The position numbers were made by a program, and so were the translations under genes. Below, one piece after another: positions 2,310-28,814 of a DNA stretch of 64,000 nucleotides. Source of the stretch: an uncultured Lentisphaerales bacterium (GTDB lineage: Bacteria > Verrucomicrobiota > Lentisphaeria > JABSQK01 > UBA12247); the NCBI GenBank assembly GCA_943788985.1, contig CALSSJ010000010.1, positions 128,001-192,000 on the forward strand, in the 5' to 3' direction. Each line of letters begins with the position of its first letter. Position 1 is the first letter of the stretch. The notes below the pieces were generated by a model. That model had not been told where the DNA came from. It saw only the letters and a program-made list of their open reading frames with translations, and ran no database searches.

Positions 2310-5300
2310 GGCGAAGGCGACTCAGCGCTCAGAACAGAGTGCGGTGGCGTCGGCACTCTCCTTTCAGTGGTGTGCGATCGGCTTGATCGTCCTCGCGACC
2401 ATCCTCGTCTATGGGCGCACGGTGAGCTTCGAGTTTACCAACTGGGATGACAACGTTCTGCTGCTGGAGAACGAAGCGGTCAGGTCGCTATCACCCGCTG
2501 GAATCGTCGAGATTTTTACCCCCAAAGCCGGTGCCACCTATCAGCCGATTCGCGTATTGAGCTATGCCATCAACTGGGCCATCCATGAGGACAGCCCGAT
2601 GGGCTACCATCTGATCAACATGATCCTGCATGGCCTGGGTGCAGTCTTTCTGTTTCTACTGTTGTTTGACGGTTTGCCGCGCCTGCTTGGGCCGGAGCAA
2701 CGGCATACCGGCATGGTCGCTCTGATTGTCGCCCTGCTCTTTGCCGTGCATCCAGTGAACGTCGAATCCGTGGCCTGGGTGTCTTCCCGCAAGTATGGCT
2801 TGCTGGGCAGCTTTTACTTTTCGGCCTGGTGGCTGTATGTACGCGGGACGGCAGGCGAGTCGCTCGACTGGCGCTTCCTCGGCGGGGCACTGGCCTGTAC
2901 CCTGTGTGCAGTCCTCTCGAGTCCGTTTGGCGTGACCCTTCCAGCCATGATCGTGATGTATGACTATTGCAGTCGCCGCGAGCTCAACCCGCTACCGCTC
3001 GCTGTAGAGCGGAAGTTGCCCTACGCGCTGTTCTTCTTTTGTGCGATCGGGATCGTTCCGTTGCTGATGAGTCTGGCGCCCTCGAAAAAGCAGATCGTCT
3101 CGCATGTAATCAAGGAGAACCGCGCCTACACGCTCTTGACCATGCATCGCTGTGTGTTCGACTACGGCCGCAATTTGGCCGCTCCCTTCTGGCTGAACAA
3201 CCGCTACCCGGATCGCTTCGTCAAAACCATCGGCAATCCCAAGGTTTTGATTGTGCTAGTGGGTGCGCTGGCGCTCATCGGCCTGGTCATCATCAACTGG
3301 CGCCAGAAGCAGATGGTCCCGCTCTTTTGCTTTGGCTGGTTCATGATCACTTGGCTCCCGGTCTCGAACATCATCGCTATCTCCACGCTGATGGCGGATC
3401 GCTACATGTACCTTGCGGCGATCGGCGTCTTTCTCGGAGCCGCACTGGCCAGTTCGCTGCTGCTGAAAGAGGCCCGCGTTCTTGCTGCTGTCTGGGCCGT
3501 CATCGTGGTCGCTATGGCCAGCATCGGCTATCAGCGCACCAGCGTGTGGCAAGACAGTGTCGCGCTCTGGAAGGATTCGATCGCCAAGGACTCCGGCAAC
3601 TACCTGGCCCATAACAGCCTAGCCAATGCCTATACCGAGCTGCGTGACTGGGACCTGGCGATGACGCACTACAAGCGAGCGCTGGCATTGAACAAGGACT
3701 ATCACGTCGTCCATTTTAACCTCGGCCAGCTCTATGATGATCTTCAGCAGTATGATGATGCGATCGCCTCCTATGAGCGATTTCTGGTCGAGATCGACAA
3801 GCGTGACGAGGACACGAACCGGGTCGACGCCATGATGAACTTAGGGGTGGCGCTCGGGTTCCAGGGCGAGTTTGGCAAGGCGCTTGCCTTACTCGAGGAC
3901 GCACTGGCCGTAGATGAGACCAGCCATCGTGGCCACAACAACCTCGCAAACGTCCTGAATCTCTCAGGCCGGGACGAGGAAGCCAAAGCATCCTACTTGC
4001 GGGCGCTTGAGCTTGAGCCAGACTTCCCCGAGGGGCACTATAACTTCGCCTCTCTCTACGCGAAGCTGAAACAAACCGACCTGGCAGTGAAGCACTATCG
4101 TCTGGCGCTCGAGCAAAATCCTGAGTATGCCGATGCCTACAACAATCTGGCGAACATTCTCAAAGACGCCGGGAAGCTCGACGAGTCCATCGCCTACTAC
4201 AAGAAGGCGCTCGGATTCTACCCGGATAACGCTGCGATCCACAACAACATCGCCGTTGCCTACCGCAAGAACGGGCAGAGTGGGCTTGCCAAGAAGCACA
4301 GCGATAAGGCCATGGCCCTCAATCCAAGCAATCCCGTGATCTACTTCCGCCAGGGGAATGACCTTGTCAAAGCAGGCAAGCTAGACGAGGCGCTAGTTGC
4401 CTACCAAGAAGCCATCGGCATTGACCCCTATCATGCCACCAGCCTGGCGCAGGTCGGGCACATTCATCGCTCGCGCAGTGAGCACGAGCAGGCGATCGCC
4501 CACTATGAGAAAGCCGTCGAGTATAATCCGCGATTGCGTACTGTGCAGCGCTATCTGGCCGAGCTCCTGACGCCGCGCAATCCAGAGCGCGCGATCCAAG
4601 TCTACCGCGATTACCTAGACCGGCACGCCGATGATCACAACGTCAGGATTAATCTTGGCGCCTTGCTGTTTGCCCAAAAGCGCACGGGCGAGGCCATTGT
4701 GGAGTACGCCATGGTATTGGAGGAAAAGCCGGACTTCTACGAGGCAAATCTGAACATCGCTGTGGCGCTGCAAACCAGCGGGCAGAAGGAGAAGGCTGTG
4801 GCTGCCTACCGGACTGCACTCAAGCTGAAGCCTGAGCAGACCAAGGTGCGCACTACGCTTGGCGCGCTGGAACTCGAGCTGGGCCAGTTCGAAGCCGCGA
4901 TCAAGGACCTGGAGCCGTTGGCCAGGGCGGATCGAAAAGTCGCAACCTTCTTTGGCTCACAGGCCAAGACCCGGCCTAAGTTTGCGGAGGCCCTCGCCAC
5001 GGCATGGGGCGAATCCAGCGAAGCAAACCTGCTCTACGTACTCGGTGCCACACTGGCCCAGGTCGGGCAGGTAGACGCGGCAATCGCCAGCCATCAGCGC
5101 GCACTCACGGTCGACGAGAAGCTGCTTGACTCACTGCAGGCGATTGGCAGCCTGCAGTTTCGCGCTGGTCGCTCGGCAGAGGCGCTCAAGGCCTTTCAAC
5201 AGGCACTGGCAATCGGCCCTGCTACCGCCGAGATTCATAACAATCTCGCCTCAGCCTACTTCTCGGCCCAGCAGCCGAAGAAGGCGATTGAGCACTTTGA

Positions 5301-24025: not shown

Positions 24026-24283
24026 GGGTTCTTAGAGAGGAACTGGGGTCGAGGCGACGGAGCAAAATCAGTCGTGATGCTGTGCAGCAGCACTACCGGG
24101 CGCGCAAGGTAATGTTGCACAGTTAGCCGCCCTGACAGCACGAAAGCAAGCGGGCCGTCCCGGCCCCCGGCAGCGAACAAGCGAAAGGTCGGTTTACAGC
24201 GACCTTACGCGCGATAGGTTAGCAACTTGTGCGAGGCCCCTGCGCCCGATAATACCAGTATTGAACCAGTGTGTGACCTTCTT

Positions 24284-25942
24284 ATGGCATCCTCTCGTAT
24301 AAACCGACCTAAAACCAAGTTTATCTTTATCACTGGCGGCGTGATTTCGTCTCTGGGAAAAGGCATCACGACGGCTTCTCTGGCGCTTCTTCTGAGTCGC
24401 CGGGGCTATTCAGTGCGGATGCAAAAGCTCGATCCTTATTTGAACGTCGACCCAGGGACAATGTCTCCGTATCAGCACGGTGAAGTGTACGTCACGTCAG
24501 ATGGCGCGGAAACAGACCTGGACTTGGGCCACTACGAGCGGTTCAGCGGAATCCAGTGCGGCAAGTCGAGTAACTACACAACCGGTCGGATCTACAGCGC
24601 GGTGATCGAGCGCGAGCGCCGTGGTGATTACGACGGGAAGACCGTGCAGGTGATTCCGCATGTGACTGATGAGATCCGCGAAGCGATCTGGTCCATTGCC
24701 GCAGAAGAGCCAGACATCGCTATCATCGAGATTGGCGGGACTGTCGGTGACATTGAGTCGCTTCCCTTTATCGAGGCGATTCGCCAGATGCGGCAGGATT
24801 TGGGCCGAGGCAACTCGGTTTCCTTACACCTGACTCTGGTGCCGTATATTAAGGCGGCCGGAGAGCTGAAAACTAAGCCATCGCAGCAGTCGGTCGCCCA
24901 GTTGCGGGAGATTGGTCTGGTTCCAGACATGCTGGTCTGCCGTACGGAGCGACGGTTGGGCCGGGAGCATCGCGAGAAGCTGGCGCTGTTTTGCAATGTC
25001 GACCGCTCGCTAGTGTTTGAAGAGCGCGATGTCGCTCACACCATCTACGAGGTGCCGCTGGAGCTCGCCAAGCAAGATATGGACACCTACATCCTAGAGC
25101 ACTTGGCTCTGCATGTGCGCGCCGTCGATCTCAGCGACTGGGAAGAGATGTGCCAGCGTCATATCAGCCCGCCGAACGGTGTCGTCGAGATCGCAGTCGT
25201 CGGTAAATACGTGCAGCTTCGTGACGCGTACAAGAGCATTTTTGAAGCACTGGACCATGCCGGTATCGCCAACGGCGTACGCATTAAGACGCGCGCCGTG
25301 GACGCAGAGAAGCTCGAAGCAGAAGGCGGTGCGGCCCTCTTGGCTGGCGTGCATGGCGTTCTGGTCCCCGGCGGGTTTGGGGATCGTGGCATTGAGGGCA
25401 AGATTCAGGCCGTGCAGTTTGCCCGTGAGAAGCTCTACCCTTTTCTTGGGATCTGTCTCGGGATGCAATGCGCGGTCGTGGAGTTCAGCCGAAATGTCTG
25501 CGGATACGAAGGCGCGCACAGCAGCGAGTTTGCCCCCGACACTCCCCATCCCGTCATTCACTTGATGTCCGAGCAGGAAGGCGTGACCGAACTCGGAGGC
25601 ACCATGCGCCTGGGGGGCTGCGAGTGTAAGGTCGAGAAACGTTCCAAGGCGTATCAGGCCTACAAAGAGCAGACGATTTCGGAGCGCCACCGCCATCGCT
25701 ACGAGTTTAACAATGACTATCGGGAAAAGCTAAGCAAGAAGGGGTTGAAGTCCACGGGTGTAAACCCGGATAAGGACCTCGTCGAGATTGTTGAGTTACC
25801 AGCGCATCCATGGTTCGTGGCCGCACAATTTCATCCGGAGTTCCAGTCTACTCCGCTGCAGTCGCATCCGTTGTTTCGCGACTTCGTGAAGGCAGCCCGG
25901 GAGCGCCGCGACACCCCACCGGAGTTGTCGCTCGAGTCCTGA
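24284..25942 (+). CDS. pyrG: CTP synthase
   Basis: [46 protein letters not shown] and QFHPEF. Confidence 0.98.
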
Positions 25943-26431
25943 GCAGGTACTCCTGACGAAGCAGGCCGAGAAAGCTCAGGAAGACCTGGCTATTGCTGGA
26001 CTTATCTACGTCGTCGATAAGCAACACGATGTCGCGCCCAACCTCTCGAGCAAAGCGGGCGACAAAAGCCGCAAGGCTTTCTGAGTCGGTCACGTCTTGG
26101 CCGAGTGCCTGCACGGTCTCAGGCAGACCTGGTTGATTAAATCGATCGTCTGCACGATCTGGCTCACGACCCCAGCGGCCAAGCTCTCTTCGCTGTCAAA
26201 CATCAAATCGCCTACGCCTTCGATGGATAGTGGCAGCACCAGATACTCGTCGCCAAGGCGGCGCAGCAACTCGAACAGCATGGCAGTCTTGCCGTATTGC
26301 CGGGGCCGGTTGATGGCAAAATAGTGGCCTCGTTCGATCAGAGCCCGAATGCGCGCTAACTTTCCCGACATGCCTACCATAAAGTGGCGCTGTGGGTTGC
26401 AACTTCCCGTGACATTGAATACGCGGCGCAT
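25940..26431 (-). pseudogene. Truncated, frameshifted AAA-like ATPase
   Basis: FNVTGSC..HFMV and INRPRQYGKT, frameshift near 26110, then VLLIDDVDKSSNSQVFLSFLGLLR. The homology stops at the pyrG 3' end. Confidence 0.8.
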
Positions 26432-26636
26432 GATCGACCCCGGGTGAGATATATCGCCGCTACGACCCACCGCAGTCAGTGGATCATCCTCACACGAGCA
26501 AGCTTTATGGCGCGAAGGCTAGCTTGAATCACTCACGCACTATCTACTCCGAGGCGGGATTGCACATCAACTCGCCAATTTCATCGCGACGCCAAACTCA
26601 AGCTGTCTGGACACCTTTTCGTATGAATTATCCACA

Positions 26637-27272
26637 CTAGAACGGCGGTGGTGAGAAGAACTCGCAGCGTTCGCCATTTACAGGATGAGTGAAGGCCAGG
26701 GCGAAGGCGTGCAGCAGCATTTTCCCAGGGCCGGTGCCAGCGCCGTAGAGAGGATCGCCGACGATTGGCAGGCCGACTCCCAACTCATGGGCCATGTGCA
26801 CGCGCAGTTGATGCGTTCGACCTGTGACTGGATGCAGCAGGACGCGGGCACGGCCCTCCTCGACTTGGACGACTTCCCAGTGGGTAATGCCGAGCTTGCC
26901 CTGGACGGGGTCATGAATCTGGTGGGGGCGATTGTCCACATCCAAGCGAAAGCGCAGAACGACCGAGCCGGATTGCTCGCTGGGTACGCCGGTGAGGATG
27001 GCGACGTAGCGCTTGTCGGTTTCGCGGTTCTGAAACTGGATGGATAAGGCCCGCTTAGCCTCTTTCGTGCGGGCTACCAGCATGAGCCCTGAGGTATCCA
27101 TGTCGAGCCGATGCGCCTCGGGTTGGACCGGGCAATCCGCGAATTTATCTCGCACGCGCGCGGTCACGCAATCGGCGTTTTCCGGGCCGCGGCCGGGGAC
27201 TGCCAACAGGCCCGATGGCTTGCAGACCACGACAAAGGCATCGTCGATATGGAGGTACTCGAGATCAGTCAT
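26637..27272 (-). CDS. RluA-family pseudouridine synthase
   Basis: KPSGLLAVPG, HRLDMDTSG (catalytic Asp), GRTHQLRVH, GDPLY and LHA. Confidence 0.95.
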   Translation of the reverse strand: MTDLEYLHIDDAFVVVCKPSGLLAVPGRGPENADCVTARVRDKFADCPVQPEAHRLDMDTSGLMLVARTKEAKRALSIQFQNRETDKRYVAILTGVPSEQSGSVVLRFRLDVDNRPHQIHDPVQGKLGITHWEVVQVEEGRARVLLHPVTGRTHQLRVHMAHELGVGLPIVGDPLYGAGTGPGKMLLHAFALAFTHPVNGERCEFFSPPPF

Positions 27273-27999
27273 CGAGGCCACACAGAACAAAGCCCAGAAT
27301 GGGTCTGCAGCGTTCTTCGCAGCTCGGATAGAACTCGCCACTGCGCTTGTTGCCGCTGAGGCCACCCCAATAGAACTCGGCGAGATCGACCGGCGTAAGC
27401 CCGGCCTGCGCGGCGTGGCACAGGAGCTTGGGGGCGCAGCACTCGCCCACGCCTCCGGGCATCGCCCGCTCGTTCGGATAGACTTCGCGCACGCTCCGGC
27501 ATTGGCCTGAGAAGTTGTGAAGCAGATAGAGGTCCGGCAATACGGCAAAGAGCTCTTGGGAACGCCGTTTGCGCTGGGCAAATATCTCAGCTCGGCGATC
27601 AGCGTCCTCGACTTGCGCCAAGGCCGCTGTATCCTGTTTGATCAGCGCCTGTGCAGGAAGGACGAGGTCCTGGTAGTGATTCTCGGCTAGCAAGGAACCG
27701 ACCCACCCGGGAATATTGCGAACTCCGCCATAGAGCGAGGAAAAAGCGCGTAGGACCACGGTCTTGCCCTCGGCATCCCGACACTCGAGGACGCCGAACA
27801 TGTGGCCGCGCTCTAGTTGGAAGAGATAGTCGAACGCCAATTTTGGATTTGCGGAGGCCGCATCGGTGAGGAAGTCGAGCCGTTGCAGGGCTTCGAATTC
27901 TGCCATGAGCTGGAGCGCGTGGTAGCGCGCATTGGCGGCGCCCAGGGTGTGCGTGGTGCCGCAAGCTTGGCAGAGCCCGTAACAGCCGTGGTCGCTCAT
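27265..27999 (-). CDS. Stand-alone putative zinc-dependent cytidine deaminase-like protein (N-terminal region of long RluA/TrcP-type proteins)
   Basis: GHMFGVL, LRAFS, RKRRSQEL, GECCAPKLL, AEFYWG and FYPSCEERCRPIL. Extra N-terminal CxxCxxxH. Confidence 0.7.
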   Translation of the reverse strand: MSDHGCYGLCQACGTTHTLGAANARYHALQLMAEFEALQRLDFLTDAASANPKLAFDYLFQLERGHMFGVLECRDAEGKTVVLRAFSSLYGGVRNIPGWVGSLLAENHYQDLVLPAQALIKQDTAALAQVEDADRRAEIFAQRKRRSQELFAVLPDLYLLHNFSGQCRSVREVYPNERAMPGGVGECCAPKLLCHAAQAGLTPVDLAEFYWGGLSGNKRSGEFYPSCEERCRPILGFVLCGLDD

Positions 28000-28814
28000 T
28001 CTGCCGCGATACGCGCCATGGCCAGTTTCAGGTCCGCCCAGACGGTTCGCTTGAATTGCTCCATGAAAAGGAGATACGAGGGCGGATAGGTGGCCAGGCA
28101 GGGAATTCCATCGAGCTCGAGCCAAGTGCCGCGGGTGTCTTCGAGGCGCTTCTGGAATAGCACCTGTAGCGGGACGCTGCCGAAGAGCAGGATGACTTTG
28201 GGCCGGACCAACTCGAGCTCGCGCCGTAGGTAGTGCGTGCAGCAAGGGATGGTGTCCGGGATATCGACGTCGACAAAATCCGGCTGGCAGCGAATGGTGC
28301 TGGTAAAATAGAGGGAGCGGCGAGTGAGGTTCATGGCACCGAGCATTTTCTCTAGCAACTCGCCTGCGGCACCGACTTCGTCTTGTTGTGGCCTGGCCGA
28401 GACAATTGCGAGGTCGGCCCGGGCCGGCCCGCGGCCCAGCGAGCGCTGCTCAGCACGGGCGCAGCTAGGGCAGGAGGTATCCTGCTGGAAGAGCTCGCTA
28501 AGGGCGGCTATTTCGGGGACCTGCTCGAGAGTGGGCATGCTCGCAGGCCGCGCAGCGACGGGTCTGAGCTGTGGCAGCACTTCCGCGATTGGGCGTGGCT
28601 GCGAGGGCACGTGGGCGACTGGCTTTTTGGGGGGGGCATCCGGTACGGGTGCTGTGGTGGCTGGAGGGACAGGCCGCGGAGGCTGGGCGCTGGCGATGAG
28701 TGAGAGGGCCTGCAAGTTTTCCGGGCTCACCTCGACGTACTTGTGCCCAGTATCTCGCTCTTCCTCGAGAATCGCGAGCAGTTGGCCGACGAAAGTTGCG
28801 GAGTTCGCGGTCAC
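27996..28814 (-). CDS. Family-4 uracil-DNA glycosylase-like protein with degenerate catalytic motifs
   Basis: CPSC, GELLEKML, RCQP, RELELVRPKVILLFG and VWADL. Motif A reads SARPQ and motif B reads TYPPSYLL. Confidence 0.8.
   Translation of the reverse strand: MTANSATFVGQLLAILEEERDTGHKYVEVSPENLQALSLIASAQPPRPVPPATTAPVPDAPPKKPVAHVPSQPRPIAEVLPQLRPVAARPASMPTLEQVPEIAALSELFQQDTSCPSCARAEQRSLGRGPARADLAIVSARPQQDEVGAAGELLEKMLGAMNLTRRSLYFTSTIRCQPDFVDVDIPDTIPCCTHYLRRELELVRPKVILLFGSVPLQVLFQKRLEDTRGTWLELDGIPCLATYPPSYLLFMEQFKRTVWADLKLAMARIAAE

Follow-up and report, generated by a model that had tools for sequence, protein, structure and literature searches.

A putative naturally split TrcP-like C-to-pseudouridine editing pair in a marine Lentisphaerales bacterium

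Does an RNA editor that converts cytidine to pseudouridine need its deaminase and its pseudouridine synthase in a single polypeptide? To our knowledge, TrcP is the only known editor of this kind. The question is raised by a 64,000-nt stretch of DNA from a marine bacterium, an uncultured member of the Lentisphaerales (contig CALSSJ010000010.1, positions 128,001 to 192,000; hereafter the window, whose numbering is used below), in which the gene of a 244-aa deaminase-like protein, P0001, runs into that of a 211-aa synthase of the RluA family, P0002 (Table 1).

TrcP (VCA0104) of Vibrio cholerae edits C32 of tRNA-Tyr to pseudouridine (Kimura et al., Nat Commun 2022, PMC9553926). In the accessible text of that paper, its deaminase domain consists of two segments (residues 1-114 and 250-339) on either side of a long helical (LHL) domain (residues 115-249), and a synthase domain follows at the C terminus. 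The zinc ligands C282, C324 and C328 and the catalytic E303 are all essential, and a basic patch of the LHL is required for tRNA binding (PMC9553926). The authors conclude that a covalent link between synthase and deaminase is required, and they propose substrate channelling via the long helical domain (PMC9553926). The window pair is homologous to TrcP and, judged by analogy, most likely works like it, minus one defining feature, the covalent union of the catalytic domains.

The deaminase and its synthase partner

Searches with P0001 alone reveal little of its nature. No Pfam or NCBIfam family matched it at E<=1, it has no H/CxE motif (its conserved glutamate sits 21 residues after the first catalytic cysteine), and a sequence search of the PDB returned only matches of E ~1, apparently spurious. 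A word-indexed search recovered 226 homologs of near its length at E<=1e-3, most of them 245-300 aa, all unnamed or 'hypothetical' and none with a Pfam domain. Among the 42 homologs longer than 427 aa, 41 carry PF00849 at the C terminus, with the P0001-like domain at the N terminus. One of them, the 470-aa P0123, is 54% identical to P0001 and 64% to P0002 and has a linker of ~10 residues, resembling a head-to-tail fusion of both window genes; in fused homologs of 540-575 aa the helical insertion is much longer. A profile search of 1.84 billion representative sequences gave 1433 matches at E<=1e-3 (clusters at 50% identity). Among the best 150 of these, 85 are 215-400 aa long and without the HRLD motif of the synthase, and 47 are at least 420 aa long, 36 of them with HRLD; by a rough motif classification without gene context, 19 of the 150 resemble stand-alone forms with a long TrcP-like insertion. 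The ESM Atlas returned unnamed clusters only, plus one cluster named after the synthase.

The link to TrcP runs through P0022, a stand-alone protein of 252 aa with 52% identity to P0001 (E 1.2e-76). It is NCBI entry MBG86826.1, which Supplementary Data 7 of the TrcP paper lists as a BLAST match of V. cholerae TrcP residues 1-339 (E 6e-19, 41% identity, 36% query cover; PMC9553926). Because P0022 is a listed match of the TrcP N-terminal domain (NTD) and 41 of the 42 long homologs are fused to PF00849, sequence comparison places P0001 as a homolog of the N-terminal deaminase part of TrcP, by a transitive link via P0022 and the fused intermediates. The same table also lists a hypothetical protein of Desulfofustis glycolicus DSM 9705 (PMC9553926); the genome of this strain has one family member, with a P0002 ortholog directly downstream.

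Stand-alone members were thus already present in that supplementary table, as 'hypothetical protein', and the homologs aligned in the TrcP paper all contain both parts (PMC9553926). Its text, in the accessible version, never uses the words stand-alone, standalone, adjacent, operon or neighbor (PMC9553926). A 2025 preprint, in the portion available, calls trcP 'so far reported as Vibrio-specific', and the accessible part of a 2026 review mentions the Vibrio case only. In the literature searched, with subscription journals outside its scope, we found no description of a natural split or of a stand-alone TrcP-type deaminase.

The motifs on which the original prediction of a deaminase rested all occur in the translation: GHMFGVL (residues 65-71), GECCAPKLL (185-193), AEFYWG (207-212) and FYPSCEERC (223-231). 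By conservation and spacing, C187, C227 and C231 together with E208 are putative counterparts of the TrcP zinc cysteines and catalytic glutamate, and none of the corresponding positions varies among 55 fused homologs, short and long. The long fused forms have the arrangement C-x20-E-x20-C-x3-C, identical to the spacing of TrcP C282/E303/C324/C328; that of P0001 itself is x20 / x18 / x3. As in TrcP, then, a Cys/Glu/Cys/Cys set lies in a deaminase domain whose two halves are interrupted by a helical insertion, and an RluA-type pseudouridine synthase is associated with it.

On the other hand, the insert is ~52 aa in the window protein and 135 aa in TrcP. A short insert had been predicted; it is real and conserved in the clade, although the AlphaFold2 (AF2) model puts its length at ~52 aa and not at the roughly 45 first estimated. 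It contains the basic run R143-K144-R145-R146, and neither R143 nor S147 varies among 50 stand-alone homologs. On the analogy with TrcP, we regard this hairpin as the probable short counterpart of the tRNA-binding LHL domain. Across the family, counted in members with both landmark motifs, the distance from motif to motif is ~91-119 residues in 184 proteins and ~180-199 in 48, with fewer proteins between and above these two clusters.

Unlike TrcP, the window protein also has an N-terminal C-x3-C-x2-C-x3-H knuckle. This element, part of the first reading of the locus, is present and turned out to be a conserved feature of the clade: C10, C13 and H17 are at least 90% conserved in the 50 stand-alone homologs, and CxxCxxxH occurs in 52 of 54 split forms, 17 of 17 partner-less forms, 13 of 36 short fused forms and 5 of 39 long-form rows. 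Judged from these sequences, the knuckle appears to mark the short-hairpin clade, whose members usually have the two domains on separate chains. Two further clade-specific cysteines set the protein apart from TrcP: C73 (27781-27783) and C240 (27280-27282) are invariant in the 50 stand-alone homologs, not across the long fused forms, and could be ligands of a second metal site or partners in a disulfide.

The AF2 model of P0001, built from a 50-sequence alignment, has a mean predicted local distance difference test score (pLDDT) of 94.6 and a predicted template-modelling score (pTM) of 0.91. In order, it predicts the two-stranded knuckle element, a helix, long strands (66-74 and 80-86), the hairpin, two short strands, a helix at C187/C188 (188-198), the strand of E208 and a helix at C227/C231 (232-239). 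As in the cytidine deaminase fold, the model places three cysteines, the predicted zinc ligands, at the N-termini of two helices, together with a glutamate. The closest reported structural analogue of the TrcP deaminase domain is blasticidin-S deaminase; PDB entries 3oj6 and 4eg2 are cited for this enzyme and the cytidine deaminase fold (PMC9553926). Unlike blasticidin-S and cytidine deaminases, P0001 has its glutamate on the intervening strand and not in a C/HxE helix motif, and it has no detectable sequence similarity to them.

P0002 matches PF00849 with 97 bits (cut-off 26.8). Among NCBIfam models the RluA equivalog NF007543 scores highest, with 153.6 bits, which is below its cut-off of 286; the score against the TIGR00005 subfamily, 149.1 bits, also lies below its cut-off of 192.7. 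With E. coli RluA, which makes pseudouridine 32 in tRNA and pseudouridine 746 in 23S rRNA and is the enzyme of NF007543, P0002 shares PF00849, HRLD and its length (211 residues against a 219-position model). It differs from E. coli RluA in falling below the equivalog cut-off and in belonging to a lineage that is fused or adjacent to TrcP-type deaminases. When four fused pseudouridine synthase (PUS) domains were compared with the proteins of the window genome, the best match was P0002 each time; the fused domains are thus closer to P0002 than to its other paralogs, which indicates a dedicated lineage.

The predicted overlap of the deaminase gene with an intact RluA-type open reading frame (ORF) in a different frame was read directly from the DNA. 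The P0002 ATG (27272-27270) lies 5 nt upstream of the P0001 TGA (27267-27265), and this 8-nt overlap, ATGACTGA, likely reflects translational coupling of deaminase and synthase.

Table 1 Features of the split pair and of contigs across its junction (window coordinates)
Feature	Position	Strand	Basis or remark
Putative stand-alone TrcP-NTD-type cytidine deaminase gene, 244 aa (P0001)	27999..27265	minus	ORF and translation
RluA-family pseudouridine synthase gene, 211 aa (P0002), ortholog of the fused TrcP-like PUS domain	27272..26637	minus	
Start/stop overlap, 8 nt, ATGACTGA	27265..27272	minus	Read directly
Predicted catalytic core of P0001: C187 (C188), E208, C227, C231	27307..27441	minus	Invariant in 50 stand-alone homologs
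Knuckle of P0001, C6-x3-C10-x2-C13-x3-H17	27949..27984	minus	Model strands 6-9, 16-20
Helical hairpin of P0001, residues 106-157, ~52 aa	27529..27684	minus	AF2 helices 106-129, 133-157
HRLD motif of P0002, residues 54-57, catalytic Asp57	27102..27113	minus	Invariant in 57 partner sequences
ATGA overlap, stop of uracil-DNA glycosylase (UDG)-superfamily gene and start of deaminase gene	27996..27999	minus	
UDG-superfamily gene upstream of deaminase gene	27996-28814	minus	PF03167, 62.5 bits, residues 129-263
Contig of run X14, DNA	26600-27461		Junction bridged, 0 gaps
Contig of run X16, DNA	26600-27857		Junction bridged, 0 gaps
Contig of run X18, RNA library	27096-27580		Junction bridged, 0 gaps

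Occurrence and evolution of the two-gene form

The split is not confined to one assembly. The exact P0001 sequence occurs on 33 contigs, and a 1.5-kb stretch of the locus recurs almost unchanged in metagenomes of marine and estuary origin, with runs from 13 studies represented. Three contigs bridge the junction (Table 1); contigs from RNA libraries that cover the pair cannot prove its transcription. A scan of one genome per species gave at least 600 pattern matches, 597 of 600 being confirmed by tblastn, in the phyla Thermodesulfobacteriota, Myxococcota, Bacteroidota, Fibrobacterota, Spirochaetota, Kiritimatiellota and Verrucomicrobiota.

We examined the gene context at the best 80 species-genome loci, with flanks of ~4 kb. 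At 49 of them the synthase is encoded as a separate ORF immediately downstream, at a distance of -13 to +63 nt, and in 15 of these 49 pairs the genes overlap or abut. The synthase gene lies immediately upstream at three loci and ~1.4 kb upstream at one; deaminase and synthase are fused in one ORF at four; no synthase gene occurs within the flanks at 17; and at the remaining six the contig ends too near for a call. No other gene family is common to more than 29 of the 80 loci, and those that reach this level resemble antisense shadow ORFs; tRNA genes occur at just two loci. A single fused ORF had been looked for as a sign of an assembly error or frameshift: none was found for this organism or for most of its relatives, and some relatives are fused. 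The split is therefore natural, and the two-gene form is the main architecture of a large clade that crosses phyla and the commonest short form of the family. Within the order or class of the window genome, only 4 of 40 genomes carry the gene, with the adjacent pair in all four, so that the distribution of the gene is patchy and accessory. Among cultured strains, the two genes stand side by side in D. glycolicus DSM 9705, Desulfoprunum benzoelyticum DSM 28570 and Desulfobulbus alkaliphilus DSM 24258.

To place fused and split forms relative to each other, an unrooted FastTree phylogeny of the deaminase domain was computed from 152 rows. These comprise the window protein, the deaminases of the 80 loci and the N-terminal parts of 71 fused proteins; stand-alone database proteins without known context were left out. 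A clade of 104 rows (support 97) holds all 54 split and 17 partner-less forms together with 27 fused ones. The long fused forms fall outside it, in all-fused groups of 29 and 18 rows and one long-branch fused row. The window protein itself belongs to a group (support 99) of nine split forms and one fused form. Parsimony requires at least 6 changes between the fused and the not-fused state, of which at least 2 are forced by well-supported branches, compared with ~49 for shuffled labels. These repeated changes of state indicate that fission and fusion happened several times; their direction cannot be told without a root.

The nearest fused counterparts of the window pair in layout are the short TrcP-like proteins of 470-503 aa, at 45-57% identity; examples are P0123 and those at loci L018, L021, L025 and L060 in metagenome-assembled genomes (MAGs) of Verrucomicrobiota and Kiritimatiellota. 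They share with the pair the short hairpin, the knuckle, both catalytic domains and their order, and differ in that the domains are covalently joined by a linker of ~10 residues; no member is characterised. The AF2 model of fused P0123 (pLDDT 91.2, pTM 0.75, with pLDDT 74 for the linker block) and the shortness of the linker suggest a fixed arrangement of both domains in such a protein.

One well-supported clade carries stand-alone deaminases without an RluA-type gene within ~4 kb (loci L027, L029, L032, L036, L037, L039, L049 and L054; deaminase match at about 4001-4730 in most and at 2947-3666 in L039). Their hosts are Bacteroidota, Fibrobacterota and one unclassified MAG. Two Pedobacter genomes have no partner ortholog anywhere. 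These proteins are candidates for C-to-U editing without pseudouridylation.

A proposed pathway and its alternatives

We consider it probable that the pair is a naturally split TrcP, in which P0001 would deaminate tRNA C32 to U32 and P0002 would convert this to pseudouridine, as two polypeptides; the activities are assigned by analogy. This agrees with the original prediction of a split TrcP-like module on three points, each with support: homology to the TrcP NTD, functional pairing with a synthase of the RluA type, and a split that is natural and conserved. In the pathway that we envisage, P0001, with its two deaminase half-domains flanking the short helical hairpin, would bind tRNA through the basic face of that hairpin, perhaps aided by the knuckle, and would deaminate C32 in the anticodon loop at its Cys3-zinc site with E208. 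P0002, co-produced via the overlapping stop and start, would then isomerise U32 to pseudouridine, the intermediate being handed over either in a non-covalent complex or by release and rebinding. Since the N-terminal domain of TrcP alone makes U32 (PMC9553926), a free-standing deaminase is biochemically plausible. Position 32 and the identity of the tRNA are most likely those of TrcP, again by analogy: the only characterised member of the family acts on tRNA-Tyr alone, according to the accessible part of a 2025 preprint, and the window genome encodes a tRNA-Tyr(GTA) whose anticodon arm, GCAGA-CTGTAAA-TCTGC, has C32. The same C32 arm was found in eight of nine other carrier genomes checked, with no BLAST match in the ninth (Pedobacter). 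The tRNA-Tyr of E. coli encodes C32 as well.

Several observations weigh against this pathway. Separate N- and C-terminal halves of TrcP gave no pseudouridine (PMC9553926), so that a natural split would need either non-covalent assembly or a synthase that finds its tRNA unaided. P0002 may also serve housekeeping targets, for example ordinary U32 tRNAs, because it is the best RluA-like gene of its genome, scoring highest against NF007543 among seven PF00849 genes (genome 83.6% complete). An RluA-type gene is missing within ~4 kb at 17 of the 80 loci, and two Pedobacter genomes (sp. KBW06 and N36a) have no partner ortholog, their best match reaching 32-38% identity, which implies that the deaminase is not strictly tied to this synthase. 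Fold searches with P0001 recovered no solved deaminase, the helical hairpin dominating every search. Finally, of 41 related genomes 33 have the C32 arm of tRNA-Tyr and none has the T32 form; the C32 arm is found in 28 of the 36 that lack the deaminase. In the window genome, C32 is encoded in 21 of the 43 tRNA genes. Being equally common in deaminase-negative genomes, tRNA-Tyr C32 was rejected as a substrate signal: its presence is necessary and says nothing more. A prediction of the P0001-P0002 complex scored 0.00 and, made without controls, speaks neither for nor against binding.

Part of this evidence suits a looser arrangement, in which an autonomous C-to-U editor is co-expressed with the cell's general RluA (with targets at pseudouridine 32 of several tRNAs and at a 23S rRNA site), the two enzymes never touching and the U32 tRNA being released and picked up again. 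The rank of P0002 among the seven PF00849 genes would fit such a role, as would the deaminases of Pedobacter and of the 17 loci without a nearby synthase; in the complete genome of Maridesulfovibrio sp. FT414, moreover, the deaminase gene and the partner ortholog (56% identity) are 16.5 kb apart and on opposite strands. Yet the genes have fused repeatedly and their stop and start codons overlap in 15 of 49 pairs, which speaks for selection to make both proteins in stoichiometric amounts, the affinity of the fused PUS domains to P0002 over all paralogs marks a dedicated lineage, and V. cholerae RluA makes pseudouridine on tRNA-Tyr when tethered to the TrcP N-terminal domain and not when untethered (PMC9553926). 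We therefore regard loose coupling as an unlikely competitor of the split-TrcP reading.

It is more doubtful still that the deaminase has a different substrate altogether, be it a different position in tRNA, another kind of RNA (rRNA or mRNA), DNA, or a small molecule such as a free nucleoside or an antibiotic. A hairpin far shorter than the TrcP LHL, the added N-terminal knuckle and the existence of partner-less deaminases would allow for this, and in the window the deaminase gene is translationally coupled to a gene of the UDG superfamily. That neighbour is, however, found at none of the 80 loci and in none of the four same-class relatives; the sole conserved neighbour is an RluA-type synthase, from a family that modifies U32. 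The invariant R143 of the hairpin parallels the tRNA-binding patch of TrcP, and the one characterised member of the family, according to the 2025 preprint, acts on tRNA-Tyr alone. That the split itself is an artefact or a recent frameshift of a fused trcP-like gene, leaving pseudogene fragments, might be suspected from fused close relatives such as P0123 and those at four of the 80 loci. We give this explanation next to no credence: contigs assembled from other runs and studies show the same 8-nt junction with 0 gaps, 33 contigs encode the identical protein, the ORFs are separate, full-length and each provided with a start codon at 53 of 80 loci and in 4 of 4 relatives, and all catalytic residues are intact in P0001 and P0002.

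Nature has separated the two domains repeatedly, and with a helical arm under half the length of that in TrcP, so that the pair offers a convenient way to test whether a covalent link is necessary for channelling. The 244-aa free-standing deaminase could also serve as a compact scaffold for RNA C-to-U editing tools, and the forms without a partner hint at C-to-U editing in bacteria that is not followed by pseudouridylation. A bolder and rather improbable extension is that TrcP-type deaminases of the free-standing kind make up a large, so far unrecognised group of C-to-U RNA editors that act autonomously in bacteria and that in many lineages have escaped the synthase (unlinked in Maridesulfovibrio, absent in Pedobacter and other Bacteroidota), with knuckle and short hairpin as a new RNA-recognition module and with substrates beyond tRNA-Tyr C32. 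If true, bacterial C-to-U RNA recoding would be far commoner than the single Vibrio case implies.

Neighbouring genes and related proteins

The P0001 gene is single-copy in its genome. The UDG-superfamily gene upstream of it follows that of prephenate dehydrogenase, and its product has an N-terminal extension of ~125 aa. Translational coupling of a cytidine deaminase to a UDG in the window is suggestive, yet the pairing is seen at no relative's locus; a reading as DNA deamination, based on a conserved UDG association, was rejected since the UDG gene stands beside the deaminase at 0 of 80 related loci and in 0 of 4 same-class relatives. Further along the minus strand, two consecutive short ORFs of 126 and 88 aa in different frames (25848-26470), neither with a Pfam match, look like remnants of a degraded gene, whose N-terminus may have been AAA-ATPase-like; the 88-aa ORF overlaps the 3' end of pyrG (24227-25942, plus strand).

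Among the members of the deaminase family, P0164 (432 aa) has no synthase domain and carries long low-complexity insertions rich in Ala, Gly and Ser, a composition unusual for a bacterium.

Two other pseudouridine synthase genes of the window genome lie outside the window. On contig C27 (L007:1412-2179, plus strand; G000:C27:54662-55432), the PF00849 match is spread over two frames (profile positions 1-74 and 71-152), which may represent a frameshifted pseudouridine synthase or an assembly error. A 609-aa ORF on contig C11 (L003:1291-3117, minus strand; G000:C11:130140-131969) combines TrhO-like rhodanese and RluA-family synthase domains, with 229 bits against NF001133 (TrhO, tRNA U34 hydroxylase) and 208.9 bits against TIGR00005, and is another fusion of two tRNA-modification enzymes in the same genome.

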